From: Candidatus Sumerlaeia bacterium | GTDB lineage: Bacteria > Sumerlaeota > Sumerlaeia > MVZB01 | Assembly (NCBI GenBank): GCA_963580245.1 | Contig: CAUZJO010000001.1 | Location: 67,564 to 131,563 of the forward strand | Direction of reading: 5' to 3' | Length of the DNA stretch: 64,000 nucleotides | In this document: positions 28,768 through 42,337 of the stretch, piece by piece | How the letters are laid out: each line of letters begins with the position of its first letter | Position numbering within the stretch: the first letter of the stretch is position 1 | Translations under genes and position numbers: made by a program | The notes under the pieces: model-generated | Told to the model about the DNA's origin: nothing | The model's input: only the letters and a program-made list of their open reading frames with translations | The model's database searches: none

Positions 28768-30726
28768 TCAATCCAAAGCCCTGACCATCAGCTCCGCGAT
28801 ACGTCGGCTAAACGCGCTGGGATCGGCCAGTTTGCCGTCTTCGGAAAGCACCGCCTGGCCGTGCAAGAGCTCGGCGTATTCGGCGAGTCGCGGGTCTTGG
28901 GGGTCTTTTTCAAACAATGATGACAGTTTCTCGACGATGGGATGGTTAGGGTTGAGTTCCAGGATGCGTTTGACTTCCGGCACGTCCTGGCCCATTGATT
29001 TCAGGATCTGTTCGAGCTGCGGCGTGAGGTCGGCCTGTTCACCGACGAGGCACGCCGGCGAGGTCGTCAGTCGGCTGGAGAGCCGGACCTCCTTGACGTG
29101 CTTCTCAAGCTTGCCCTTGATGGCCTCGAGCAGCGATTGATACGTCTGCTCCTGCTCCTTGCGTTCCTCCTCGGCTTTTTTCTTCTCTTCCTCGTCGCCC
29201 AGTTCGATCTCGCCCTTGCCGACCGACTTGAACGGCTTATCCTTGTGTTCGAAGACCCCGCCGGTCCAGATCTCGTCGATCGGGTCGCTCAGCAGCAGGA
29301 CCTCGTAGCCCTTGTCGCGAAACGCCTCGAGGTGAGGTGAGTTCTCGATCGCCCCGCGCGACTGACCCGTCATGTAATAGACCGCGTCCTGCCCGTCCTT
29401 CATCCGGCCCACGTAATCCTGCAACGTGCTCAGCCCCCCGTCGACCTGCGTGGACTCGAACAGGCACAGATCGAGCAGCGCCTCGCGGTTGCGTTCATCA
29501 TGAATGATGCCTTCCTTGATCACGCGGCCGAACTGGCGCCAGAATTTCTCGAACGACTCGGCCTCGTCCGCCTGCATCCTGCGCAGCGTATCGAGGACCT
29601 TGCGCACCAGGCTGTTGCGGATCAGACGGATCTGGCGGTTCTGTTGCAGGATCTCGCGCGAGATGTTGAGCGAGAGGTCTTCGGAATCGACGACGCCGCG
29701 GATGAACCGGAAGTACTCGGGGATCAGCTCCTTGCAATCGTGCATGATGAAGACGCGCTTGATATAGAGTTGTATCCCGTGGTCGCCGTCGGGCATCAGG
29801 ATATTGATCGGCGCCTGGGACGGGATATAGAGCAGCGCGCGGAACTCGTGGGTCCCCTCGGCCTTTATGCTGAACCACTTGAGCGGGTCGGTCCAGTCGT
29901 GGCTGATGTGTTTGTAGAATTCCTTGAATTCCTCTTCCTTGACCTCGCTCTCGGGCCGGGTCCAGATCGCCTTCATCGAGTTGAGTGTTTGGTCCTCGAC
30001 GACGGTCCGCTCCTGGGCGCCTTCCTTGGGTTTACCTTCCTCGTCGCGTTCAATCTCGCTACGCTCAACCTGCATGCGGATGGGATACGAGACGAAGTCG
30101 GAATACTTTTTGACGGTTTGCCGAATGACCCATTCCTGCGTGAAGTCCTCGACCCCCTCTTCCTCGCTGACCGGTTTGAGGTGAAGCGTGACGGTGACGC
30201 CCTGGGCGGACCGTTCGGCTTCCTCCATCGTGTAGCGGCCGTCACCGTGCGATTCCCACTTCCAGGCCTGCTCTTCGCCGGCGCGGCGGGTGACGAGCGT
30301 CACGCGGTCGGCCACCATGAAGCTGGAATAGAAGCCGACGCCAAATTGTCCGATGAGTTCGGTCGGCACGTCGCTCTTCTTGGTTTGCTTGACCAGCTCG
30401 AGGAAATCGGCGGTCCCCGACTTGGCGATCGTTCCGATAAAACGGATGATCTCGTCGTGATTCATCCCGATCCCGTTGTCGCTGACCGAGAGCGTGCGCT
30501 TGTCCCCGTCCACTTCGATGTGGATATGGGCGTCTTCGGTCAGGTTGCCCAGCTTCTCACTGGTCAGGGCCTCGAAGCGCAGTTTGTCGAGGGCGTCGGA
30601 GGCGTTCGAGATCAGCTCGCGCAGGAATATCTCCTTGTGCGAGTATACTGAATGAATCATCAGATCCAAAAGCTGCTTGGCCTCGGTCTGGAATTCATGG
30701 GTTTCGATCGTGGCGGTCATCGTCAA
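28768..30726 (-). CDS. htpG: Molecular chaperone HtpG (Hsp90).
   Basis: The N-terminal ATPase motifs are FLRELISNASDALDKLRF and GQFGVGFYSSFMVADRV. The length is 652 aa, with GGAGGAG as Shine-Dalgarno. Confidence 0.92.
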   Translation of the reverse strand: MTMTATIETHEFQTEAKQLLDLMIHSVYSHKEIFLRELISNASDALDKLRFEALTSEKLGNLTEDAHIHIEVDGDKRTLSVSDNGIGMNHDEIIRFIGTIAKSGTADFLELVKQTKKSDVPTELIGQFGVGFYSSFMVADRVTLVTRRAGEEQAWKWESHGDGRYTMEEAERSAQGVTVTLHLKPVSEEEGVEDFTQEWVIRQTVKKYSDFVSYPIRMQVERSEIERDEEGKPKEGAQERTVVEDQTLNSMKAIWTRPESEVKEEEFKEFYKHISHDWTDPLKWFSIKAEGTHEFRALLYIPSQAPINILMPDGDHGIQLYIKRVFIMHDCKELIPEYFRFIRGVVDSEDLSLNISREILQQNRQIRLIRNSLVRKVLDTLRRMQADEAESFEKFWRQFGRVIKEGIIHDERNREALLDLCLFESTQVDGGLSTLQDYVGRMKDGQDAVYYMTGQSRGAIENSPHLEAFRDKGYEVLLLSDPIDEIWTGGVFEHKDKPFKSVGKGEIELGDEEEKKKAEEERKEQEQTYQSLLEAIKGKLEKHVKEVRLSSRLTTSPACLVGEQADLTPQLEQILKSMGQDVPEVKRILELNPNHPIVEKLSSLFEKDPQDPRLAEYAELLHGQAVLSEDGKLADPSAFSRRIAELMVRALD

Positions 30727-30889
30727 GGGTCTCCTCCAATGGCGGTCGTCGCATCAATTACTGGCGTTCTCTGGCGGGTGGCGGAGCAATCTTATCGTTT
30801 GACCGCCACCTACAGTAACAGAACTATTACCACGACCAGCGTTGGGAATCACCTGGTTTTTGTAGATTCTTTCGTATCAATAGGACGCG

Positions 30890-31035
30890 GATGACGCGGA
30901 TTTTACGGATTCACACCGATCAGAGAATAATTAAAACTTGTTTATATATTGCCTTAATCCGTGAAAATCTGTCAAATCCGTATCATCTGTGTTCCATAAT
31001 TCGCGAGAATCCGTTGAATCCGCGTCATCCGCGTT
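30890..31035. promoter_or_regulatory. AT-rich (40% GC) module in the htpG promoter region. It is bounded by 15-bp inverted repeats and carries multiple CGGATT/AATCCG half-sites. It is either a candidate heat-shock operator or a MITE-like insertion.
   Basis: ggatgacgcggattc at 30889-30903 and gaatccgcgtcatcc at 31021-31035 are perfect reverse complements. Inside, CGGATT occurs twice on the left and AATCCG four times on the right. GC is 40%, against ~63% for the window. Confidence 0.5.
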
Positions 31036-31040
31036 CCATA

Positions 31041-31310
31041 TCAAAAGCTCGACGAGATCGTTCTTTCATATTCGGGAAAGTATCTGTTGATCAGCGGCAG
31101 GTCGAAACGCGACAGAATCATCGTATTGCTCTCACGTTCGAGCAGGAACTCGAACGACCGCTTGATCAGTTCCGCCTCCGATGCCTTGCCACCCGTCAGC
31201 TTTTGATAATAGGCCGGATCAAGCGTCACCGTGTGCGTCGTGGTCGACTTGTCTTCAACGGTCACGTGATATGAATCCGCGCCTTTCTCTTCAACGAGTA
31301 TGTTCGCCAT
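31041..31310 (-). CDS. Small hypothetical protein of 89 aa, divergent from the carbohydrate cluster and co-directional with htpG.
   Basis: The ATG has a GGGAGG Shine-Dalgarno 10 nt upstream. The composition is coding-like (MANILVEEKGADSYHVTVEDKSTTTHTVTLDPAYYQKL…). Confidence 0.5.
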   Translation of the reverse strand: MANILVEEKGADSYHVTVEDKSTTTHTVTLDPAYYQKLTGGKASEAELIKRSFEFLLERESNTMILSRFDLPLINRYFPEYERTISSSF

Positions 31311-31527
31311 AGGTGTCCGCCTCCCATTTGTCCGGCATTCGGAAAACCATGGGTTAATAATACACCCCGGGCCTTAATGTCAAGCCTTCATGACCGCATC
31401 GGCCCATTCGGGTATGATGCAGTTTTGGGAGTCAACGCAATTTGAGGATTACTTGTTTGACACCGTGCCGGTAAGGGATTAGTCTGGGAGCTGGAGATTA
31501 AAGTACGCGCTGTATCGGAGCGACTGA

Positions 31528-33144
31528 TTGGCTCGGAGCGGACATATGGGATATTTCAGTTTACGCCGGCAATCCCTCAGCGGGAATGTTGTGCCGCTTC
31601 TTCTGTTTCTATGTGGCGGATTGCTCTCTGGTTTATGCGCTGGTGAGCCGCCCCGTCAATCCAGATATCTCCTGCTCGATTCACGGATCGTTGAGAAGAC
31701 CGAAAACGTCAAACTCACCGTCGGCACCGTCGGCAAGCACCCCGCCAATCCCCTGTTCGGTGAAGATAACCCATGGGAGCCTCGGTTGGACAACTTGTAT
31801 GGGACGATCATGTACGACGAAGAGGACGGCCTGTATAAACTTTGGTATAACCCCTTTGTGCTCGACGGCGCGATGACCCGCACGCCCCCCGATCGACGCC
31901 TGCCCGAAACGGATCCTCCCGGCGATCCCAGCGACCCCGAGAGCCTGACCACCTATATGAAGATGCATTCTCCGGCGAGGGCTCAGCTAGGCAATGATTC
32001 CGAGGAAACCATCGCAAGTTGGTACGGCATGCAACGCGTGAGCGGCGTTTGTTACGCGACTTCCACGGACGGAATCCATTGGGAGAAACCCCTGATGGAC
32101 CTTGTCACGTTTCAGGGCCGCAAGAGCAACATCGTTTTCTGGGGGGCGCACGGACCGGGCGTGTTATACGATCCGCTCGAGCGCGACCCGGCCCGGCGTT
32201 ACAAGATGTTTTTCAGCTATCATTTTCGCGAGCCGGTGCTCCCCGGCAGCCCAAAACTGGACTCCTATCCGTTCATGTCGGTTGCGTTCTCGCCCGATGG
32301 CTTGCGTTGGGGAGAGCCGATCGCGGTTCCGGAACTCCGCGTCGCGGGCGACACCCACAGCAATACCTTCTGGGCGCCTGAATTGAACAAATACGTGGGG
32401 ATTACGCGTCATTGGGAAGACGGCCGGGTCCATCGCGAAAGCCAACGGCTCGTCTACCGCACCGAGACCGCGGACTTCATAAATTGGAGCGAAGCCGAGG
32501 AAGTCCTGCGCGGCACGAAATCCGATCAGGTCTACGCGATGCCCGTTTTCCGACACGCCGGCGTCTATCTTGGGTTTGCCACGATCCTGCGAGTGCGCGA
32601 AGACCGTTCGCACTGTGAATTGGCCTGGAGCCCCGATACGATCCATTGGGAGCGCATCGATCCGGGGACGCCGCTGATTCCGAACGGGGGCGAGGTCGGA
32701 GACTACGATTGGGGATGCGTCTTCGCGTGCGATAACCCCGTGTTCCTCGACGACGAAATACGTCTTTTCTATGAAGGTTCGAATGGGATCCACGGGGGAT
32801 GGCGTAATTCGTTTCTCTGCCTGGCGAGCCTGCGGCCCGATGGGTTCGCGGGCTACGAGCCGTCATCGGATGAGACGAACGGGAACGTGTGGACGCAGCC
32901 CGTTATCTGTCAAGGGGCGAACCTGCGCGTCTCCGCGGACGCGGCCGGCGGGGCCCTCAGGGTCGGCATCGTCGGTGACGCGGACCGGTCAATCGAACGT
33001 TGCAAGCCGATCCAGGGCGATGTGAGCGACACCGTCGTTCAATGGAGCGATGCCGGTAACCTTGCGCCATACCACGGCGGGCCGATTCAACTCCAGTTCG
33101 AGTTGGACGGCGCCAAGCTCTATTCTTTCAGCTTTGCGGATTGA
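31528..33144 (+). CDS. Secreted glycoside-hydrolase-like five-bladed beta-propeller protein (GH43/GH32/GH130 superfamily; exact family not resolved).
   Basis: A signal peptide is present. There are repeated propeller-blade signatures with conserved Asp/Trp (…STDGIHWEKP…, …FSPDGLRWGEP…, …WSPDTIHWERI…, …FYEGSNGIHGGW…). Confidence 0.4.
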   Translation: MARSGHMGYFSLRRQSLSGNVVPLLLFLCGGLLSGLCAGEPPRQSRYLLLDSRIVEKTENVKLTVGTVGKHPANPLFGEDNPWEPRLDNLYGTIMYDEEDGLYKLWYNPFVLDGAMTRTPPDRRLPETDPPGDPSDPESLTTYMKMHSPARAQLGNDSEETIASWYGMQRVSGVCYATSTDGIHWEKPLMDLVTFQGRKSNIVFWGAHGPGVLYDPLERDPARRYKMFFSYHFREPVLPGSPKLDSYPFMSVAFSPDGLRWGEPIAVPELRVAGDTHSNTFWAPELNKYVGITRHWEDGRVHRESQRLVYRTETADFINWSEAEEVLRGTKSDQVYAMPVFRHAGVYLGFATILRVREDRSHCELAWSPDTIHWERIDPGTPLIPNGGEVGDYDWGCVFACDNPVFLDDEIRLFYEGSNGIHGGWRNSFLCLASLRPDGFAGYEPSSDETNGNVWTQPVICQGANLRVSADAAGGALRVGIVGDADRSIERCKPIQGDVSDTVVQWSDAGNLAPYHGGPIQLQFELDGAKLYSFSFAD

Positions 33145-33220
33145 GCATTCCAGGGGTCCGGGACGAATCTGCTTCGACGGGCCAATATATCTAAAGAGGG
33201 AAGCCGGTCTAAGGCGTGTG

Positions 33221-34456
33221 ATGGGCGTCATCGGAGACACTCAGGGTCTTGGCGTAAGACATCCGCGGGATTGGCCGCGCGAGGCGAAAGCATCGGAAAA
33301 GGACACGGGCGTTCCCGTTTCGTTCGAGGAATTGGAACGCAAGGCCCGCGAGAAGCTGCCGCCGGAAATCTATGACTTCGTGGCCGGCGGGGCGGGCGGC
33401 GAGGAGACGATGCGGGCCAATCGTCAGGCCTTTCAGCGCCGGTGGTTGGTGCCGCGCATGTTGCGTGACGTCTCCCGATGCAGGACGGACATTGAACTGC
33501 TGGGTGCCCGACATCCCGCGCCGGTTTTGCTGGGGCCGGTGGGGTGCTTGGCCCTTGTGAACCCGGAGGGAGAGGTGGCGGTTGCGCGAGCGGCGGCTTC
33601 GGCCGGGCTCACTTATGTGTTGAGTAACGCCTCGAGCCACGGCATCGAAGCGGTGGCCGAAGCCATGGGAGACGCCCCTCGCTGGTTCCAGCTTTACGTC
33701 AGTCCGGACCACAAACTGAACTCAAGTTTTCTCAAACGGGCCCAGTCCGCGGGCTATCGCGCCGTCATGGTGACGGTCGACACCAAACGCCTGGGCTGGC
33801 GGGAACGGCTCATCAAGCGGGGCTACAACCCGCAACGCGTGGGTCATGGGATGGGGGTTTACCTGAGCGATCCGCATTTTCGCGGGCTCATTCCGGAGTC
33901 CGCCAAGGAGGATCACCAGACCGTCTTCGATACCTTCGCCCGGGTGGCGATCAATGACGCGCTGACGATCGAAGATGTTCGCCGCCTGCGGGATCAGACG
34001 CCCTTGCCGATCCTGCTCAAGGGCATTCTGCACCCCGAAGAGGCGGCCGAGGCGGTCGAGCACGGCGTCAGTGGCATCGTTGTCTCCAACCACGGGGGCC
34101 GGCAACTGGAAGGCGCCATCAGCGCCCTGGACGCCCTGCCGGGGATTGTCAAGGCCGTGGCCGGTCGCGCGGCGGTGTTGCTCGATGGCGGCGTGCGCCG
34201 CGCCCCGGACGCGCTCAAAGCCATCGCGCTCGGCGCCGACGCCGTCATGCTCGCTCGGCCCTACGTCTATGGGCTGGCGTTGGCGGGAGAGCGTGGCGTG
34301 GGGCAGGTCCTACAGAATTTCCTCGCCGACTTCCACACGTCTTTGGCGCTGGTCGGCTGCGGCTCCGTTGAAGAGCTTGACGCCTCGTTTATTACCGAAG
34401 GCCCCTGGTATGGGGGCGGGGTTGGTCCGGCCGAGGTCGGCGGCGCATCCGAGTAA
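33221..34456 (+). CDS. FMN-dependent alpha-hydroxy-acid dehydrogenase/oxidase (L-lactate dehydrogenase LldD / glycolate oxidase family).
   Basis: Matches include EIYDFVAGGAGGEETMRAN, WFQLYV, MVTVDT and ILLKGIL…GIVVSNHGGRQL…LLDGGVRRAPDALKAIALGADAVMLARPY. The start is taken at the ATG at 33221. The ORF-track start at 33050 overlaps the upstream gene. Confidence 0.8.
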   Translation: MGVIGDTQGLGVRHPRDWPREAKASEKDTGVPVSFEELERKAREKLPPEIYDFVAGGAGGEETMRANRQAFQRRWLVPRMLRDVSRCRTDIELLGARHPAPVLLGPVGCLALVNPEGEVAVARAAASAGLTYVLSNASSHGIEAVAEAMGDAPRWFQLYVSPDHKLNSSFLKRAQSAGYRAVMVTVDTKRLGWRERLIKRGYNPQRVGHGMGVYLSDPHFRGLIPESAKEDHQTVFDTFARVAINDALTIEDVRRLRDQTPLPILLKGILHPEEAAEAVEHGVSGIVVSNHGGRQLEGAISALDALPGIVKAVAGRAAVLLDGGVRRAPDALKAIALGADAVMLARPYVYGLALAGERGVGQVLQNFLADFHTSLALVGCGSVEELDASFITEGPWYGGGVGPAEVGGASE

Positions 34457-34529: not shown

Positions 34530-36026
34530 TTACTGGGCGCCTCTCCCCGGCTTCATAACGATGATCCGATCCAGCTCCTCGCCGTCCTTCCTCACCTGCC
34601 GAATCTTCAACCGGTTTCCGTCTACCTCGACGTACGTAAACTGATGGACATCGGCGATGTACTTCGCCGTGTAGGGCTGCCAGGTTTCCGAATTGTCGGT
34701 TTGCTCGGGACTGTGGAGCTGCTGATTCCCGCCCCCGCCGGTAACGTAATAAATCACGCCTTCCGGGGTCGTGTCCGTCTTGCCGTCGAACTCGCGGTCG
34801 AGTGCGAAGCTTCCCGGGATTTCATGGCCTTGCTCCTTGACGGGACCGGTCGGCCTGGGATCGGCAGTGAATTTCAATGGATAGGTGCGCTGGTAGGCGT
34901 GGGTGTATCCGCAGAATACCACGTTAACGCCCCCCTCCTCGAACAGGTCGGCCACGATCCGCATTTTTTGCGTATGTGGAAACATGGTGGACGAATTGAA
35001 GGGTGGAAGGTAACAGGCGACGAACTTCCACGTGGCGTCCTTCGCCGCTTCCAGGTCTTGCCTGAGCCAATCCCGAAGCATCGGGTCGTTCCAATCGGCA
35101 TGGGGGTTCCATGAATCCAGCATCGTCCAGTGCGAATCGGCGTAATCGAAGGAATAGTTGGCCATGCGCGGGTATCGATCGCCGGTGGCGGTCAGGATGG
35201 CCTGCTCCCGCTCGGCCGTGCCGCCCAGGGGAAACGTGTTCGGTCCCCCAACTTGAAGCGCTGGGCCATTCAGGGGTTGGGACCAGTACATGTAATACGC
35301 GAATCCGTCGGGATGGGCGTCGAGGGGTTGACCGCTATCGTGTTGCCCCAAGCCCGCCAGAAACAACGTGGACCTTATCAGCGGCGCGCCGACGTCCGCG
35401 GAAGCTTGATCGGCGTTATAGATCGGGAAATACTTCTCGCGATACTCACTGATCCGGCCGTCGTTATAAATGATGTCGCCGGGGATGACCACGAAGTCCG
35501 GCTTCCATTGGTGGACTTGATGCGCGACTTCCTTCTGTTCGGGGCTGTTGACGCCGCAGTCCGCCATCACCACGCATTGAAACGGCCGGCCCGCGGGCTT
35601 GCGCGCCATTGCCTCGGCCGAAAAGACGATCTCCCCGTTTCGTGATACCCGATACTCGAAAAACCCGCCCGGCTTCAGACCCGTGAGCGACGCGCGATAG
35701 ACACGGTGAGGCGCAATCGACTCGACGGCAACGCGGCGCCAGGTGGGAGTTCCGCAGTCCGTCCATGCAACTCCATCGACCGGCCGCGATTGAACCGACC
35801 AGTCCGCGTCCGTGTCCTCGGCATGCCAAAGCAGCTCCAGGCTTTCGGCTCGGGCGAGTTTCGCGGCGTCGCCCAGTTGCAGGTATGGCTTCACAATAAA
35901 GGGAACCGGATCAGGTGATTCCGCATCCGGGGCCTGCGCCAAGGCGGACGGTCCCGTCACGCGCGCGCAACCGATGCAAAACGCAAACAGATACAGGAAC
36001 CGATTGACCGTCACGCGTGGAACCAT
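34530..36026 (-). CDS. Secreted metallophosphoesterase (calcineurin-like, purple-acid-phosphatase-like).
   Basis: A signal peptide is present. The phosphoesterase blocks are VVMADCG, IPGDIIYNDG, LAGLGQHD and FCGYTHAYQR. Confidence 0.6.
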   Translation of the reverse strand: MVPRVTVNRFLYLFAFCIGCARVTGPSALAQAPDAESPDPVPFIVKPYLQLGDAAKLARAESLELLWHAEDTDADWSVQSRPVDGVAWTDCGTPTWRRVAVESIAPHRVYRASLTGLKPGGFFEYRVSRNGEIVFSAEAMARKPAGRPFQCVVMADCGVNSPEQKEVAHQVHQWKPDFVVIPGDIIYNDGRISEYREKYFPIYNADQASADVGAPLIRSTLFLAGLGQHDSGQPLDAHPDGFAYYMYWSQPLNGPALQVGGPNTFPLGGTAEREQAILTATGDRYPRMANYSFDYADSHWTMLDSWNPHADWNDPMLRDWLRQDLEAAKDATWKFVACYLPPFNSSTMFPHTQKMRIVADLFEEGGVNVVFCGYTHAYQRTYPLKFTADPRPTGPVKEQGHEIPGSFALDREFDGKTDTTPEGVIYYVTGGGGNQQLHSPEQTDNSETWQPYTAKYIADVHQFTYVEVDGNRLKIRQVRKDGEELDRIIVMKPGRGAQ

Positions 36027-36050: not shown

Positions 36051-38108
36051 TTACTCGTTCTCATCCGACCAGATGGAATCAAGCCGCCAAACGTCCAGGC
36101 TTTTGACCGACGTGGTCCCGGCGTTCGAGAACACTTCAACGCCCAGGTCAGTCGGAGGCACGGAGATGGACTCGGTGTAAACGACCCAATCGTTGGCGAA
36201 AACTTCCAGGGAGTGCTTATCCAGAAAGACTTGAAGCCGCAGGGTTTGCTCGCCCTCCATCAATTTTGCTGGTGTCTTGTCGCCCGCCACCTCGAGGTAT
36301 TCGCCGTCGCAGGCGATTCGCACGAAACGGCTCCCGTCTTGCGAGCATCGCACTTTCAGACCGAACTCCTCGGCGCCGCCGGGTTCGAATTCAACTTTGA
36401 TTTCGAGCAAGTCGCCCTCGATGCCTATGACCCGCCGGGACTCATCGGTCAGCTTGATGTTCGATTGACCGACGTGCTCGCGGCGTAGTTTTTCGAGCTC
36501 CGGAACCGGCCGCTGCCCCAACCGACCGTCCGGCCGAAGCTCGAAGATGCGGGGAAGCGATAATCCGACCGGTCCAATGCCAAAACCAATCCGGCGGCCA
36601 TCTCCATCCTCCAAGGTTTCGCAAAAGATGAAGTGGCCCGTAAACTTGTGCATATCGCCCTGGGTCGGGTCATGATCGGCCACGCCCGCGTAGTCCAGAT
36701 AGTCCTGAAACTCCGGCGTAAATTTGTATTTGTCCCAGTCAAAGTTCCCCACGAAGTACTGGCTCGGACCGAAGGGCTCGGCGGCGACGACCCATTTGTC
36801 CCCAAGGGGAAACATGTCCGGTTCCTCCCAGCCCCTGGTCTCGGCGACGTACGGGACGCTCAGAAAATCCCAATGAATCAGATCCCACGAGCCGTACAGG
36901 GAGAAGCAACCCTTATACTCCTCGCCGAAAAACTGCCCGCCCCCAAGGATCATGTACCACCTGTTTTCATGCTTGAACAGCGCGCAATCGGTCCCGTGGG
37001 TCATGGGATTCTCCGGCGTATTCGTGATGACCGGATTCGTTTTGTACTTGCGCCACGTGACCCACTCCTGGTCGCCCACGGCCGCCATCTGATCCATCGC
37101 GCGTTCCGAACTGCGACTGGTATAGAAAATCCTCGGGACGCCGTCGTCGCCGACCGCGACCGCGCCGGACGCGCAGTAAAACTCGCCGTTCTCCTCCGAC
37201 GGCCAAATCGCCGGCGGCAAATCCTCCCAATAGACCAGGTCCTTCGAGCGCGCGTGCGCCCAGAAGTTATGGGAGAATATGTCCCTGCGGTCGCCGAATG
37301 GGTTGTAGATGTAGAACAGGTGATAATAACCGTCATGATAGTAGACGGTGTGACCGCCAAACCCGAACACGCGAGACTGGTAATGGTAACCGCGTCGCGG
37401 CGGCGCCTTTGCCTTGGCTCGCTTCACGTTTTCATCGGCTCGCCGGATGAGATCGGGACTGCTCAGAATGTCCGCGTTGGGTTGATCGCCTTGAAAGATC
37501 TGGTCGACGCAGATGAACCCGTCGGGGCCGGCGAAGTTATCCACGATCCGAATCCGCGCGGACTTGCCGCGCATCGATCGGACGTCCCACGACGCCCATT
37601 TCATCTCGACCCCGCCGTCGCTCGCGAGGCCGTCGCCCGTCTTCGTCCGTAAAACCACGTGGTCGCCGACCGCAAGCCGGTTATGGTGAGTGGTCAGCAA
37701 ATCGAAAGTATACGGAACGACGCCCGGGTCGACCAACAGATTGACGCATACCTCATCGCCCCAAAAGTCCACCGGCTTTTTCACCAGGCGGCCCCCGGGG
37801 TGATAGCCCCCGCCGACAAGAAAGTTGATGTAGTCCCGCTCGATCACGAACGAAGGCGACATCAGCACGCCCTTGGATGCTTCACCACCGTGAACGGAGT
37901 TCACGTACCCCATGCCCAAGAACCCTTCGACCGGTCTGAGGCCGGGGAGCGGGGTATTAACCGGGCCCGGCCCAAACGCGTCCCCCGACACCTGCCAATC
38001 TCCATAGTCATCGGCCTCGAATTGACCTATGAAGATTTCCTGCCCATTGCCAACGGCCGTCAAGAGCATAAACATCAAGAACCAGTAGATGCGCGGCTGT
38101 GTTTTCAA
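36051..38108 (-). CDS. Secreted GH32-fold protein, copy 1 of 3. It has an N-terminal ~200-aa extra domain, a five-bladed propeller and a GH32 C-terminal beta-sandwich. The catalytic nucleophile Asp is replaced by Gly.
   Basis: It aligns to GH32 as follows. WMNDPNG…YHLFYQYNP corresponds to FGFGGHTV…YHLFYIYNP, so there is no Asp. FRDP corresponds to GTDC, retaining the Asp. WECP corresponds to WEEP, retaining the Glu. The GH32C tail is …LEVFANDWVV…VWRLDSIW. The start is TTG with an AAAGAGG Shine-Dalgarno. Confidence 0.75.
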   Translation of the reverse strand: MKTQPRIYWFLMFMLLTAVGNGQEIFIGQFEADDYGDWQVSGDAFGPGPVNTPLPGLRPVEGFLGMGYVNSVHGGEASKGVLMSPSFVIERDYINFLVGGGYHPGGRLVKKPVDFWGDEVCVNLLVDPGVVPYTFDLLTTHHNRLAVGDHVVLRTKTGDGLASDGGVEMKWASWDVRSMRGKSARIRIVDNFAGPDGFICVDQIFQGDQPNADILSSPDLIRRADENVKRAKAKAPPRRGYHYQSRVFGFGGHTVYYHDGYYHLFYIYNPFGDRRDIFSHNFWAHARSKDLVYWEDLPPAIWPSEENGEFYCASGAVAVGDDGVPRIFYTSRSSERAMDQMAAVGDQEWVTWRKYKTNPVITNTPENPMTHGTDCALFKHENRWYMILGGGQFFGEEYKGCFSLYGSWDLIHWDFLSVPYVAETRGWEEPDMFPLGDKWVVAAEPFGPSQYFVGNFDWDKYKFTPEFQDYLDYAGVADHDPTQGDMHKFTGHFIFCETLEDGDGRRIGFGIGPVGLSLPRIFELRPDGRLGQRPVPELEKLRREHVGQSNIKLTDESRRVIGIEGDLLEIKVEFEPGGAEEFGLKVRCSQDGSRFVRIACDGEYLEVAGDKTPAKLMEGEQTLRLQVFLDKHSLEVFANDWVVYTESISVPPTDLGVEVFSNAGTTSVKSLDVWRLDSIWSDENE

Positions 38109-38188
38109 GGTCGCCTACCTCTTTCTAATAGGGTGTCATCCACGTTCGCGGAATGATCCGCCAACAAAACCGAAGGTTCTCCATCCCG

Positions 38189-40243
38189 TCACCAGATCGA
38201 GTCCAACTTCCAAATATCGAGCCGCTTCACTTTCGCCGAACCCCCAGCGGAAAACAATTCAATTCCCAAGTCCGTCGCCGGCGCGGAGACCCTCACCGTA
38301 TAAACCACCCAATCGTTGGCGAAGACTTCTATGATATGTTGATCGATGAAGACGTGCAGACGCAACGTCGATTCTCCTTCCATGAGATCGGCGGGGATTC
38401 GTTCGCCGCTGACCTCGAGGCGCTCCCCATCATAACGGATCGGAACATATTGGGATCCGTCCGCGGAACGCCGTAGCTTCAACCCGAATTCCTGGGCCGA
38501 GCCGGGGACGAATTCCACTTTGACCTCGAGCATGTTCCCTTCGATACCGCGAATCACGTGGGACGTATCCACGAGGTCCACGTCCGTTTCAGCATAGTGT
38601 TCCCCTCTTAACTTGGCTAATGCTTCTATCGGCCGCTGGGCGAGCTTGCCGTCGGGCCTGATCGTCAGCACCCGCGGCAGCGACTGGCCACCCGGCGCCA
38701 TGCCCATGTAGATCATGCGGCCGTCCTTATCCTCGAACGGCGTGCAGCCATAAAACGATCCTGAATATTCCGCGTGGCCGTGCGTTTTGGGATCGTGCTT
38801 CTCGGAACCGACGAAATCCACGAAACTGTGCACCTCCGGCGTAAAGGTGACATTTTCCCAATCGAAGGTGCCCGTATAGTATTGAGTCGGGCCGAAGGGT
38901 TCGAAGATAACGACCCATTTATCACCCAGCTTAAACATCTCGGGCTCTTCCCACCCTTTCGTCTCGGCGACGTAAGGAAGGCCCACAAACTCCCAATTCA
39001 TCAAGTCGTCGGACCCATGAAGGGTAAAGCAGCCCTTGGTTTCGCCGTCTACTTTGATCTTGCCTCCGAGAACCATGTACCATCGGCCCTCGTGCTTGAA
39101 CACGCTGCAATCGGTCCCGGTGCCGTTGATCCTCATGGCCATCGGGTTATCCGGAGTATTCGTGATCACCGGATTCGTCGCGACCTTGCGCCATTTCTCG
39201 AAGGTAGCGTCGCCCACGGCCGCCATCTGATCCATGGGCCGTTCCGAACTGCGACTGGTGTAGAAAATCCATGGCGTGCCGTCGTCGCCAATGACCGCGG
39301 CGCCGGACGCGCAATAGAACTCGCCGTTATCCTCCGACGGCCAGATCACCACGGACATGTCTTCCCAATACACCAGGTCCTTGGAGCGCGCGTGACGCCA
39401 GAAATTATGGTTCCAGACGTCCTTGCGATCCCAAAAAGGATCATAGATGTAGAACAGGTGATAGTATCCGTCGTGATAGACGCAAGTCGGCCCGCCGAAC
39501 CCGAACACCGCCGGTGTGTAATGGTAACCGCGACGCGACGGGGCCTTCTTTTCCGCTCGTTGCACGTTTTCGTTGGCGCGATGCAAAATGTCGGCGCGGG
39601 TATAGATGTCCCTTTGGGGTTGGTCGCTCTGCGCGATCTGATCGACGCAGATGAACCCCTCCGATCCGGAATGGTTGTCCACGACCTGAATCCGCGCGGT
39701 TTGGCCCCGCAGGGACCGGACATCCCAGGTTTCCCACTGCAGTTCAACGTTTCCGGCGGGCGAGAGGCCGGGCCCCGTCGTCGTGCGCAGGACAATCCGA
39801 TCACCCACGGCAAGCCGATGATGTCCGGTGTGAATATGATCGAAGGTCAGCGGGAGCCCGACGGGCTTGATGAGCAGGTTCACGCAGCACTCGTCCCCCC
39901 AGAAATCTCGAGGCGCCCTGGTCCGCCGGCTTCCCCGGTGATGTCCGCCGCCGATCTGGAAGTTGATAAAGTCACGTTCGATGACGAATTCCGGCGAAGT
40001 CAGGACACCCTTGGCCGCCTCTCCTCCGTGAAAGGAGTTGATAAAGCGCCCGTTTTCCCATCCCCTCACTGCCGGCTGTCCGGGGAGCGCGCCCGTTACC
40101 GGTTCCTGGCCGAACGCTTCCCCGGAAACTTGCCATTCCCCATGGTCCTCTGCCTCGAAATCGTTAATGAAAACATCACCCGCCGCGCTGGAGATGGCGT
40201 ACAAGAAGACGTGCAGAGCAATCCAAGGGATTATGCGCCTCAT
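38189..40243 (-). CDS. Secreted GH32-fold protein, copy 2 of 3, lacking the nucleophile Asp.
   Basis: The architecture is the same, with FGFGGPTCVYHDGYYHLFYIYDP, GTDCSVFKHEGRWYMVLGG and WEEPEMFKLGD. The ATG at 40243 with an AGGAGA Shine-Dalgarno gives a signal peptide MRRIIPWIALHVFLYAISSAAG. Confidence 0.75.
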   Translation of the reverse strand: MRRIIPWIALHVFLYAISSAAGDVFINDFEAEDHGEWQVSGEAFGQEPVTGALPGQPAVRGWENGRFINSFHGGEAAKGVLTSPEFVIERDFINFQIGGGHHRGSRRTRAPRDFWGDECCVNLLIKPVGLPLTFDHIHTGHHRLAVGDRIVLRTTTGPGLSPAGNVELQWETWDVRSLRGQTARIQVVDNHSGSEGFICVDQIAQSDQPQRDIYTRADILHRANENVQRAEKKAPSRRGYHYTPAVFGFGGPTCVYHDGYYHLFYIYDPFWDRKDVWNHNFWRHARSKDLVYWEDMSVVIWPSEDNGEFYCASGAAVIGDDGTPWIFYTSRSSERPMDQMAAVGDATFEKWRKVATNPVITNTPDNPMAMRINGTGTDCSVFKHEGRWYMVLGGKIKVDGETKGCFTLHGSDDLMNWEFVGLPYVAETKGWEEPEMFKLGDKWVVIFEPFGPTQYYTGTFDWENVTFTPEVHSFVDFVGSEKHDPKTHGHAEYSGSFYGCTPFEDKDGRMIYMGMAPGGQSLPRVLTIRPDGKLAQRPIEALAKLRGEHYAETDVDLVDTSHVIRGIEGNMLEVKVEFVPGSAQEFGLKLRRSADGSQYVPIRYDGERLEVSGERIPADLMEGESTLRLHVFIDQHIIEVFANDWVVYTVRVSAPATDLGIELFSAGGSAKVKRLDIWKLDSIW

Positions 40244-40276
40244 CCAGATTGTCTCCTCTTTCAATGGATCGTCCAT

Positions 40277-42337
40277 CTACCAAATAGAGGCCAACTTCCA
40301 GATTTCGAGGTTCTTCACCTTCGTCGAACCCCCAGCGGAAAACAATTCGATTCCCAAGTCCGTCGCCGGCGCGGAGACCGCCACCGTATAGACCACCCAA
40401 TCATTGGCGAAGACTTCCATGATATGTTGATCGATAAAGACGTGAAGCCGCAACGTGGTTTCGCCTTCCATGAGATCGGCGGGGATTCGTTCGCCGCTGA
40501 CCTCGAGGCGCTCCCCATCATAACGGATCGGAATATTTTGGGATCCGTCCGCGGAACGCCGTAGCTTCAACCCGAATTCCTGGGCCGAGCCGGGGACGAA
40601 TTCCACTTTGACCTCGAGCATGTTCCCCTCGATGCCATGAATCACATGGGACTCATCCGCGAGGTCCACGTCCGTTTTCGCGTAGTGTTCCCCTCTTAAT
40701 TTAGCCAACGCCTCGATAGGTTTCTGGGCGAGTTTGCCGTCGGGCCGCATCGTCAGCACCCGGGGTAGCGACTGGCCACCCGGCGCCATGCCCATGTAGA
40801 TCATGCGGCCGTCCTTATCCTCGAACGGCGTGCATCCATAAAACGATCCCGAGTATTCCGCATGGCCGTGCGTCTTGGGATCGTGCTTCTCCGAGCCGAC
40901 GAAATCGACGAAACCATGCACTTCGGGCGTAAAGGTGTAATTCTCCCAATCGAAGCTGCCGGTATAGTATTGAGTCGGGCCGAAGGGCTCGAAGATGACG
41001 ACCCATTTGTCGCCCAGTTTAAACATCTCGGGCTCTTCCCACCCTTTGGTGTCGGCGACGTAGGGAACGCTCACGAATTCCCAGTCGATCAGGTCGTCCG
41101 ACGCGTGCAGGGAGTAACATCCTTTGTATTCGCCGTCGACCATCTTGAGTCCTCCAAGGACCATGTACCACTTATCCTCATGTTTAAATATGCCACAATC
41201 CGTCCCGTGGGTCATGGGATTATCCGGCGTGTTGGTGATGACGGCATTGGTCGGATACTTGCGCCAGGTCGTTAAATCCGCGTCTCCCACCGCCGCCATC
41301 TGGTCCATGGGCCGCTCCGAACTGCGGCTTGTGTAAAATAGCCTCGGCACGCCGTTGTCGTCGATCACGGCCGCGCCCGAGGCGCAATAGAACTCGCCAT
41401 TGTCCTCCGAAGGCCAGATCTCCACGTCCAAGTCTTCCCAATACACCAGGTCCTTGGATCGCGCGTGACGCCAGAAATTGTGGTTCCATGTGTCCTTACG
41501 GTCCCAAAACGGGTCATAGATATAGAACAGATGATAGTACCCGTCGTGATAAACGCAAGTCGGTCCGCCGAAACCGAAGACAGGCGCATTGTAGTGGTAA
41601 GCGTGACGCGGCGGGGCTTCTTTTTCGGCTTTCGCGACGTTTTCATTGGCGCGCCGCAGAATGTCGGCGTCGTGCAAGACGTCCCATCGGGGCTGATCAC
41701 TCTGGACGATTTGATCGACGCAGATGAAACCGTGCCGCCCCGCATTGTTATCAACGATCCGGATCTGGGCCGTCTTGCCGCGTAGGGTTCGGACGTCCCA
41801 GGTCGCCCATTCCAACTCGACCCGATCGTCCGAATCCAAGCCCGGGCCGGTCGTCGTGCGCAGGGCGATCTTGTCGCCGACGGCCAGTCGGTGATGTCCG
41901 GCGTTAATGGTTTCGAACGTATAGACCAGCTCGGCCGGATCGAGGAGTAGGGTTAGACAACACTCCTCGCCGTAAAACTCCTTCGGCTCGCGGATGTTGC
42001 GTTTTCCCAGGTGGTATCCACCACCGACGAGAAAGTTGATATAGTCCCGTTCGATCACGAAAGGCGGCGAAGTCAGAACACCCTTCGAAGCTTCTCCGCC
42101 ATGACGAGAGTACAACAGACGGTCCCCGGAATAGCCCTTTATCGACGGTTGGTCGACTCGGGGCCCCACGGTGGGGCCCGCGCCGAACGCTTTTCCCGTC
42201 ACCGCCCATTCTTCAAATGACTCATTCTCGAAATCGGCGATGAGAAGATCTTGCGAGCCGGCCGGCGTGACCACGTTCGCAAACATTGCCGCCAGAAACC
42301 ACAGGTGGCCTAAGCATCTTTTTGCGCGTTTTCCCAT
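40277..42337 (-). CDS. Secreted GH32-fold protein, copy 3 of 3, lacking the nucleophile Asp.
   Basis: Its C-terminal third is ~93% identical to copy 2, including identical nucleotide stretches. It is separated from copy 2 by only 33 bp. Confidence 0.75.
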   Translation of the reverse strand: MGKRAKRCLGHLWFLAAMFANVVTPAGSQDLLIADFENESFEEWAVTGKAFGAGPTVGPRVDQPSIKGYSGDRLLYSRHGGEASKGVLTSPPFVIERDYINFLVGGGYHLGKRNIREPKEFYGEECCLTLLLDPAELVYTFETINAGHHRLAVGDKIALRTTTGPGLDSDDRVELEWATWDVRTLRGKTAQIRIVDNNAGRHGFICVDQIVQSDQPRWDVLHDADILRRANENVAKAEKEAPPRHAYHYNAPVFGFGGPTCVYHDGYYHLFYIYDPFWDRKDTWNHNFWRHARSKDLVYWEDLDVEIWPSEDNGEFYCASGAAVIDDNGVPRLFYTSRSSERPMDQMAAVGDADLTTWRKYPTNAVITNTPDNPMTHGTDCGIFKHEDKWYMVLGGLKMVDGEYKGCYSLHASDDLIDWEFVSVPYVADTKGWEEPEMFKLGDKWVVIFEPFGPTQYYTGSFDWENYTFTPEVHGFVDFVGSEKHDPKTHGHAEYSGSFYGCTPFEDKDGRMIYMGMAPGGQSLPRVLTMRPDGKLAQKPIEALAKLRGEHYAKTDVDLADESHVIHGIEGNMLEVKVEFVPGSAQEFGLKLRRSADGSQNIPIRYDGERLEVSGERIPADLMEGETTLRLHVFIDQHIMEVFANDWVVYTVAVSAPATDLGIELFSAGGSTKVKNLEIWKLASIW

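Follow-up and report, generated by a model that had tools for sequence, protein, structure and literature searches.

Glycoside hydrolase family 32 (GH32) is among the best-understood glycosidase families. Its enzymes are retaining: the WMNDPNG Asp acts as nucleophile, the EC-motif Glu as acid/base, and the RDP-motif Asp as transition-state stabilizer; the direct hydrogen-bond partners listed for the fructosyl unit are the nucleophile, the RDP Asp, and a Trp (PMC3360783). The canonical bacterial members (e.g., 7vco, 1uyp/1w2t, and 6num), which are β-fructofuranosidases, levanases, and sucrose-6-phosphate hydrolases, are the closest known system to the genes described below. Here, we investigated three tandem genes (copies 1–3) in a 64,000-nucleotide stretch of DNA (hereafter, the window) from an assembly labeled Candidatus Sumerlaeia bacterium (GCA_963580245.1, contig CAUZJO010000001.1, forward-strand positions 67,564 to 131,563). 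They encode GH32 proteins that, together with a small clade of relatives, have lost the nucleophile and most of the fructosyl pocket but have kept the other two catalytic carboxylates.

Some glycosidases, inverting glycoside phosphorylases among them, manage without an enzyme nucleophile or base; examples are GH130, the substrate-assisted families, and GH99. They illustrate how phosphate or a substrate group can stand in for a missing carboxylate while a single general acid remains. GH130 has the five-bladed propeller superfold in common with the clade, but the likeness is an analogy only. The clade has no sequence membership in GH130, and a candidate phosphate site is hypothetical. The plant defective invertases, such as tobacco Nin88, are like the clade in having the GH32 fold; they act outside the cell, as the clade proteins appear to do, and have lost the normal sucrose activity of the family (PMC3713406). 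They lose the Asp/Lys couple and some of the Trp residues that hold glucose (PMC3713406), whereas the clade breaks the catalytic triad itself. The clade also differs from the plant proteins in its rebuilt fructosyl pocket and in its bacterial, unrelated lineage.

Family membership and architecture

A first-pass annotation of this DNA, made from the letters alone, had assigned the genes to GH32 on the basis of motifs, and the assignment is borne out by profile, sequence, and structure searches. In Pfam, all three copies match Glyco_hydro_32N (PF00251; 127–132 bits against a cut-off of 22.1, E of 1e-36 to 4e-38) and Glyco_hydro_32C (PF08244; 66–70 bits against a cut-off of 21.9, E of 1e-18 to 1e-19); the values listed for copy 3 are 1.5e-37 and 4.5e-18, respectively. 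The Glyco_hydro_32N match begins at profile position 15, immediately past the WMNDPNG motif, and clade members score ~130 bits with this profile versus ~280–320 bits for canonical sequences. A phmmer search of PDB sequences returned only GH32 proteins as best matches, with 7vco at the top (E = 2e-31). The NCBIfam models for sucrose-6-phosphate hydrolase and BfrA were matched below threshold only.

An AlphaFold 2 (AF2) model of copy 1, built with a 28-sequence alignment as input, has a mean predicted local distance difference test score (pLDDT) of 87.2 and a predicted template modeling score of 0.84. The strand pattern of the model agrees with a sandwich at the N-terminus, a linker helix, five blades of four strands each, and a second sandwich at the C-terminus, in line with the domain architecture that the first-pass annotation had proposed. 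When this model was compared with the PDB using Foldseek, 50 of the 50 best matches were GH32 structures, with E values down to 3.5e-31 and target-normalized TM scores up to 0.77. We therefore place copies 1–3 in the GH32 sequence and fold family. A better fit to some other family had been raised as an alternative, but no non-GH32 family in Pfam or NCBIfam exceeded its cut-off for any copy. GH43 (clan GH-F) was matched by copy 2 alone at 25.4 bits, under the Pfam cut-off of 32.2, and the GH130-type model NF052550 of NCBIfam gave 14.5 bits (E = 0.017) against a cut-off of 450.

The N-terminus of each copy is basic and leads into a hydrophobic run; by eye, this resembles a Sec signal peptide, and the proteins thus appear to be secreted. 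The N-terminal domain of ~200 residues has no Pfam match, and DUF4980 and DUF4975 were absent even at E <1. However, it is related to a domain that occurs repeatedly inside Streptomyces GH32 proteins (36% identity, E = 5e-32) and, clade-specific insertions aside, can be aligned to the N-domain carried by the closest canonical relatives. These are planctomycetal proteins (P0029–P0040) of 33–39% identity, which carry this domain as the clade does. Canonical GH32 proteins and the clade thus share Glyco_hydro_32N and Glyco_hydro_32C, the propeller and sandwich, the accessory N-domain, the RDP Asp, the EC Glu, and framework motifs including YHLFY, HARSKDLVYWE, NP, and SLPR. The clade departs from the canonical proteins in lacking the nucleophile Asp, in its replaced pocket residues, in two new Glu residues, and in a 16-residue insertion.

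Loss of the nucleophile and rebuilding of the pocket

The nucleophile position was located with three alignments. One was a phmmer alignment to 7vco, one used MAFFT and 30 canonical GH32 sequences, and the third set the clade profile against a profile built from 26 canonical relatives with hhalign (probability 100%, E = 1e-163). In all three, residues F248-G-F-G-G-H-T254 of copy 1 lie opposite W-x-N-D-P-N-G in a loop that is one residue shorter. The nucleophile Asp falls on G251 (hhalign) or on a gap, and no acidic residue occupies the position in any of the three alignments. Across the aligned clade, the position is Gly or a gap in 28 of 28 members, versus Asp in 30 of 30 canonical sequences. 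D374 and E428, the counterparts of the RDP Asp and the EC Glu, are each invariant (28/28). The FGFGG(H/P)T, TDC, and WEEP motifs reported in the first-pass annotation are all present in each copy (Table 1), and the pattern it described, with the nucleophile lost and the other two carboxylates kept, holds well beyond the three copies.

The changes extend to most of the fructosyl pocket. We compared the 28 clade members with the 30 canonical sequences at positions where canonical conservation reaches 85% or more. Nearly all of those known or likely to line the −1 pocket are replaced across the clade; of the fructosyl-binding residues, only the Ser of FSGS is generally kept. The W, N, D, P, N, and G of the canonical loop become G, G, gap, G, H/P, and T. 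The Gln of FYQ becomes Ile (I267), the first Trp of the WG.M motif is variable, the Gly of WGHA is Lys or Arg, and the Phe of FSGS is Ala (A313). In blade 5, the canonical YA pair is replaced by I/V/Y plus V/G, and a Trp by Leu, Met, or Ile (position 511). The Arg of RDP, reported as fully conserved across clan GH-J and as a modulator of the acid/base pKa (PMC3360783), is Thr in 24 of the 28 members (T373) and Val in the other four, and the EC Cys is Glu in 27 (E429). Most of these changes put a small or hydrophobic side chain where the canonical proteins have a bulky or polar one, and the clade pocket is therefore probably larger and less polar.

The clade has also gained residues. In addition to E429, E444 is present in all 28 members, and the 16-residue insertion carries D480 (24/28) and H484 (25/28). 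The insertion lies between blades 4 and 5, at the site of the flexible Asp/Lys loop with which plant invertases position the aglycone (PMC3713406). The segment that contains it (residues 473–492) has a pLDDT of ~69 in the copy 1 model. Judging by the hairpin register of the model, E429 and E444 should be adjacent to each other on the blade-4 face opposite E428.

No member retains the nucleophile or the bulk of the fructosyl pocket, and copies 1–3 therefore cannot be classical retaining β-fructofuranosidases; the first-pass annotation had argued against that function from the lost nucleophile and the two retained carboxylates. It had allowed that the Asp of VYHDGYY might sit in the nucleophile site. 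That residue, D259 in copy 1, is variable in the clade (D in 11, N in 6, E in 6, K in 4, and G in 1 of the 28) and lies at the far end of strand A, off the active-site face of the model. We therefore ruled it out as a substitute.

A β-fructofuranosidase or fructanase with its nucleophile or base relocated to E429, E444, D480, or the Asp of a TRD(F/V)GG loop strikes us as distinctly improbable. E429 and E444 are near-invariant and clade specific, D480 is on a top-face loop, three clade members have an Asp two residues before the nucleophile-equivalent Gly, and the N-domain is common to canonical fructanases. However, the residues that hold the fructosyl unit (contacts in PMC3360783), at the Asn, Gln, Arg, Phe, and Trp positions, are nearly all gone. 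E429 and E444 are predicted by strand register to point away from E428, the candidate D259 is unconserved, and no fructose-utilization genes lie nearby. The TRD(F/V)GG loop itself marks a sub-branch (P0024, P0025, P0026, and L010 10001–12034), where its Asp, two residues ahead of the nucleophile-equivalent Gly, may be a partial reversion or, confined to that branch, an alternative catalytic residue.

Distribution and related types

We searched 5.8 billion proteins with a word-indexed method. The Asp-less loop was present in ~26 clusters at 90% identity, all at least 47% identical to copy 1, and all matches below ~40% identity had WxNDPNG together with FYQ. An exhaustive hidden Markov model search with the clade profile over 1.84 billion cluster representatives (50% identity, E ≤1e-3) matched 14,611 GH32-like representatives. 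Only three of these score as clade members (1,090–1,143 bits). The next scores are 769, 644, and 478 bits, the first from an intermediate type and the rest from canonical or near-canonical proteins. The pattern of losses and gains is uniform across the ~26 known relatives, nearly all of which come from metagenome-assembled genomes (MAGs) of marine Planctomycetota.

Among 185,579 species represented by one genome each, the clade was found in only about five MAGs. Clade-bearing MAGs include Pirellulaceae (Station ALOHA), two from the Canada Basin, and one labeled Sumerlaeota; the Sumerlaeota-labeled MAG GCA_964473105 holds at least six clade copies. One clade sequence is annotated as Pirellulaceae bacterium, and some members adjoin PSCyt1, PSD1, and DUF1501 genes, which we take to be typical of Planctomycetota. 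Tandem arrays recur, as in L005, where four GH32-like genes stand in a row. Our best reading is that the clade is a small, neofunctionalized GH32 subfamily almost confined to marine Planctomycetota. The MAG labels are mixed: Candidatus Sumerlaeota for L007, L011, L013, and L001 (GCA_964473105), Myxococcales for L008, and Pirellulaceae or Planctomycetota for the others. Mis-binning, mislabeling, or horizontal transfer could account for this.

Two further GH32-like types accompany the clade. Type B (P0027, P0121, and L005 15657–17714) has the loop YSN(G/A)xH, which also lacks Asp, and sits in the clade's tandem arrays; in L005, it is one of the four genes, the other three being clade members. 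It retains the FYQ Gln and the WGH motif, while Val takes the place of both the RDP Arg and the EC Cys. In evolutionary terms, type B looks intermediate between canonical GH32 and the clade. Type C (L011 1510–4428, P0028, and P0123) is ~960 residues long and adjoins a clade member. Its loop, NGDPDG, has one extra residue and still contains the Asp, while the RDP Arg is lost and the EC motif reads EV. Both types resemble the clade in architecture, in their origin from marine MAGs, in the blade-5 insertion, and in the loss of the RDP Arg and EC Cys.

Clade proteins are automatically annotated as "beta-fructofuranosidase" or "sucrose-6-phosphate hydrolase." These labels are almost certainly wrong, and fructan use would therefore be over-predicted in marine Planctomycetota. 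We found no description of a nucleophile-less bacterial GH32 clade in the full-text literature searched, the coverage of which is incomplete. The clade is a rare branch of a well-known enzyme family, and its job is probably new.

Selection and age of the array

The ratio of nonsynonymous to synonymous substitution rates (dN/dS) is 0.16 for copy 1 against copy 2 or copy 3 and 0.20 for copy 2 against copy 3. The clade alignment has ~90 invariant columns, and the pocket-facing starts of the blades are among its most conserved positions. Copies 1–3 are functional genes under purifying selection. Tandem genes that lack a key catalytic residue might also be read as pseudogenes in the making, decaying after a recent local amplification. 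We give this reading almost no credence: the reading frames are intact, the dN/dS values are low, the same substitutions and the invariant columns recur in ~26 relatives from several genomes, and the duplication is old. Purifying selection and clade-wide conservation refute it.

Copy 1 is 60% identical to copy 2 and 59% to copy 3 at the protein level, and copies 2 and 3 are 76% identical to each other. The dS is ~2 and saturated between copy 1 and either of the others, and 0.82 between copies 2 and 3. Within the latter pair, divergence is uneven. The proportion of synonymous differences is ~0.65 in the 5′ half but 0.14–0.23 in parts of the 3′ third, and the 3′ thirds (38189–38950 of copy 2 and 40277–41040 of copy 3) are 86–95% identical in DNA, against 48–72%, with saturated synonymous sites, in the 5′ halves. 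P0005 is an ortholog of copy 3 from elsewhere, with 91% identity. In the N-domain, copy 3 is 89% identical to P0005, while copy 2 is 60% identical to P0005 and 59% to copy 3. In the C-terminal part, all pairs among copy 2, copy 3, and P0005 are 89–92% identical, so that the C-terminus of P0005 is likewise homogenized.

Because the N-domain of copy 3 is far closer to P0005 than to copy 2, with the C-termini alike, the duplication that gave copies 2 and 3 is older than the species split between copy 3 and P0005, and gene conversion between old paralogs best accounts for the similar 3′ stretch. The first-pass annotation had noted near-identical stretches in copies 2 and 3 and concluded that the array was amplified recently. 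The stretches are real, if limited to the 3′ third, but a recent amplification does not agree with the dS values of 0.82 to ~2 or with the P0005 ortholog.

Proposed activity

Our preferred reading, which we hold tentatively, is that copies 1–3 are still catalytic and act by a non-canonical route on a different glycan, with E428 as the general acid and the attacking group supplied from elsewhere. The full GH32 body of accessory N-domain, five-bladed propeller, and C-terminal β-sandwich is retained, along with two of the three carboxylates, the acid/base E428 and D374, whose GH32 counterpart holds two ring hydroxyls beside the anomeric carbon. The nucleophile loop of blade 1 has become a shorter Gly-rich loop, and almost every bulky side chain that contacts fructose has given way to a small or hydrophobic one. 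E428 would then protonate the leaving group, and the glycosidic bond of some other marine glycan would be cleaved or rearranged. The attacking group would not come from blade 1. It may be a group of the substrate itself, through neighboring-group or intramolecular attack; alternatively, it may be an exogenous anion such as phosphate, held in the vacated Gly-rich pocket, or a water that one of the new carboxylates activates. Within an array, the diverged paralogs would cover different linkages.

We prefer a catalytic role for four reasons: loss and retention are all-or-none across the clade, new carboxylates are fixed beside the catalytic Glu, the pocket-facing positions are among the most conserved, and diverged paralogs have built up into arrays. 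In a pseudoenzyme, loss of the catalytic residues should be uneven among members, whereas here one is lost and two are kept in all members. Expansion into arrays would be typical of enzymes that attack heterogeneous polymers.

Several points weigh against this proposal. The clade is known from metagenomes alone, and its genomic context gives no hint of a substrate. The loss of the RDP Arg, said to be completely conserved in clan GH-J and to tune the acid/base pKa (PMC3360783), may mean that E428 has ceased to act as an acid, and sugar binding alone could explain why D374 and E428 are kept.

The last point leads to the idea of a non-catalytic pseudoenzyme, a secreted glycan-binding (lectin-like) or regulatory protein in which D374 and E428 are mere hydrogen-bonding ligands of the sugar. 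We consider this, the main rival reading, somewhat unlikely, but the absence of the nucleophile from every member would suit it, as would the loss of the pKa-tuning Arg (PMC3360783), the retention of an accessory binding-type N-domain, and the existence of inactive regulatory GH32 proteins in plants (PMC3713406). The plant defective invertases keep their triad, however, and hence offer no precedent for this kind of loss (PMC3713406). An acid/base Glu that is not needed for binding is nonetheless invariant in 28 of 28 members, the new carboxylates are fixed beside it, and arrays of diverged paralogs suit enzymes better than regulators.

A further reading, to which we assign a low probability, is that the nucleophile was deleted in favor of a substrate group or phosphate, giving a substrate-assisted or anhydro-forming glycosidase, or a phosphorylase, for a non-fructan marine glycan. 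If true, this would be a new activity class within clan GH-J. The predicted secretion of the clade proteins speaks against the phosphorylase form, here and in the preferred reading, as a phosphorylase outside the cytoplasm would be unusual.

If the proteins are active, the clade would show a retaining glycosidase scaffold re-tooled after removal of its nucleophile, and could point to an unrecognized marine glycan substrate. If they are inactive, the clade would be a bacterial GH32 pseudoenzyme of a kind distinct from the plant ones.

Coordinates and gene neighborhood

The three open reading frames (ORFs) of 685, 695, and 686 residues lie head to tail, as first described. See Table 1 for all coordinates. 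Public gene calls start copy 2 at MRRII, which gives a protein of 684 residues (38189–40243, identical to P0003). With this start, the gap between copies 3 and 2 is the 33 nt given in the first-pass annotation; copies 2 and 1 are separated by 80 nt. Copy 1 is 100% identical to P0001 across 685 residues. Copy 2 has a 5-residue insertion (MRINGTG) directly ahead of the TD motif (39107–39135, residues ~370–379). An insertion at the same place is also found in P0014 (GPIGGTG), a paralog-specific change at the rim of the pocket.

Table 1. Positions, within the window, of the GH32 copies, their diagnostic motifs, and adjacent genes
Feature	Position	Strand	Description
Copy 3	40277..42337	minus	ORF, 686 aa; signal peptide, N-terminal β-sandwich domain, GH32 propeller, GH32 C-terminal β-sandwich
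Copy 2	38189–40276	minus	ORF, 695 aa from first ATG; architecture as copy 3
Copy 1	36051..38108	minus	ORF, 685 aa, TTG start; architecture as copy 3
N-terminal domain, copy 1 (~aa 23–215)	37464..38042	minus	Akin to accessory domain of canonical bacterial GH32
FGFGGHT loop, copy 1 (aa 248–254)	37347..37367	minus	Stands in for WMNDPNG; G251 opposite nucleophile Asp
FGFGG(H/P)T loop equivalent, copy 2	39485–39505	minus	
FGFGG(H/P)T loop equivalent, copy 3	41558–41578	minus	
GTDC, copy 1 (aa 372–375)	36984..36995	minus	RDP counterpart; D374 invariant, Arg replaced by Thr
GTDC equivalent, copy 2	39107–39118	minus	
GTDC equivalent, copy 3	41195–41206	minus	
WEEP, copy 1 (aa 427–430)	36819..36830	minus	EC counterpart; E428 invariant, Cys replaced by E429
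WEEP equivalent, copy 2	38942–38953	minus	
WEEP equivalent, copy 3	41030–41041	minus	
EPFGP, copy 1 (aa 444–448)	36765..36779	minus	E444 closes blade-4 strand B; clade-specific invariant Glu
Insertion segment, copy 1 (aa 473–492)	36633..36692	minus	Contains the 16-residue clade-specific insertion; blade 4–blade 5 connection, active-site face
Metallophosphoesterase	34530..36026	minus	Apparent signal peptide; Pfam Metallophos, E = 5.5e-8; 24 nt downstream of copy 1
FMN-dependent α-hydroxy-acid dehydrogenase	33050–34456	plus	ORF; Pfam match at aa 99–449
538-aa propeller protein	31528–33144	plus	Hydrophobic N-terminal helix

The metallophosphoesterase gene may be co-transcribed with copy 1, but the other clade loci have nothing equivalent. 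When the ORFs of 11 loci, the window and 10 others, were compared all against all with BLAST, no neighbor family recurred between the window and the rest; beyond GH32 genes, one sulfatase and one GT4 each recur once among the 11. Direct comparisons of unknown neighbors likewise found nothing, and no fructose-utilization genes were seen near the loci examined. The copies are flanked in the window by the FMN-dependent dehydrogenase, the metallophosphoesterase, a HEAT-repeat protein, and a 1,120-aa cadherin/Ig-like protein, and further genes encode HtpG, a phytoene/squalene synthase, and GTP cyclohydrolase I. The earlier suggestion of a sugar-processing locus is thus unsupported, as the neighbors are not conserved in the 10 other loci and the window holds unrelated genes. 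A scan for promoters and terminators gave counts at or below those in shuffled sequence.

One neighbor had been described as another secreted, propeller-bearing glycoside hydrolase-like protein. The 538-aa product of this gene does have the five-bladed propeller fold, but it falls in no described family, with no match in Pfam, NCBIfam, or PDB sequences. It has more than 2,160 homologs, mostly annotated "hypothetical protein" and from Planctomycetota, some of them fused to BNR/sialidase or DUF1080 domains. Its AF2 model (pLDDT 85) is a five-bladed propeller plus a sandwich, the superfold of GH43, GH32, GH130, and GH159, and distantly resembles GH159, GH43, GH130, GH32, and a GalNAc deacetylase (E ~1e-10, 10–17% identity). 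The protein looks like a member of a large, uncharacterized glycosidase-like family. The FMN-dependent dehydrogenase ORF that follows has a 98-aa N-terminal extension that runs 95 nt into the end of the preceding gene; its true start is probably further downstream. The intergenic region between the HtpG gene and the 538-aa gene (30727–31527) lies inside the 2-kb bin with the lowest G+C of the window (30001–32000, ~0.55 versus ~0.62 elsewhere), and the sole ORF within it has an atypical codon-position G+C.

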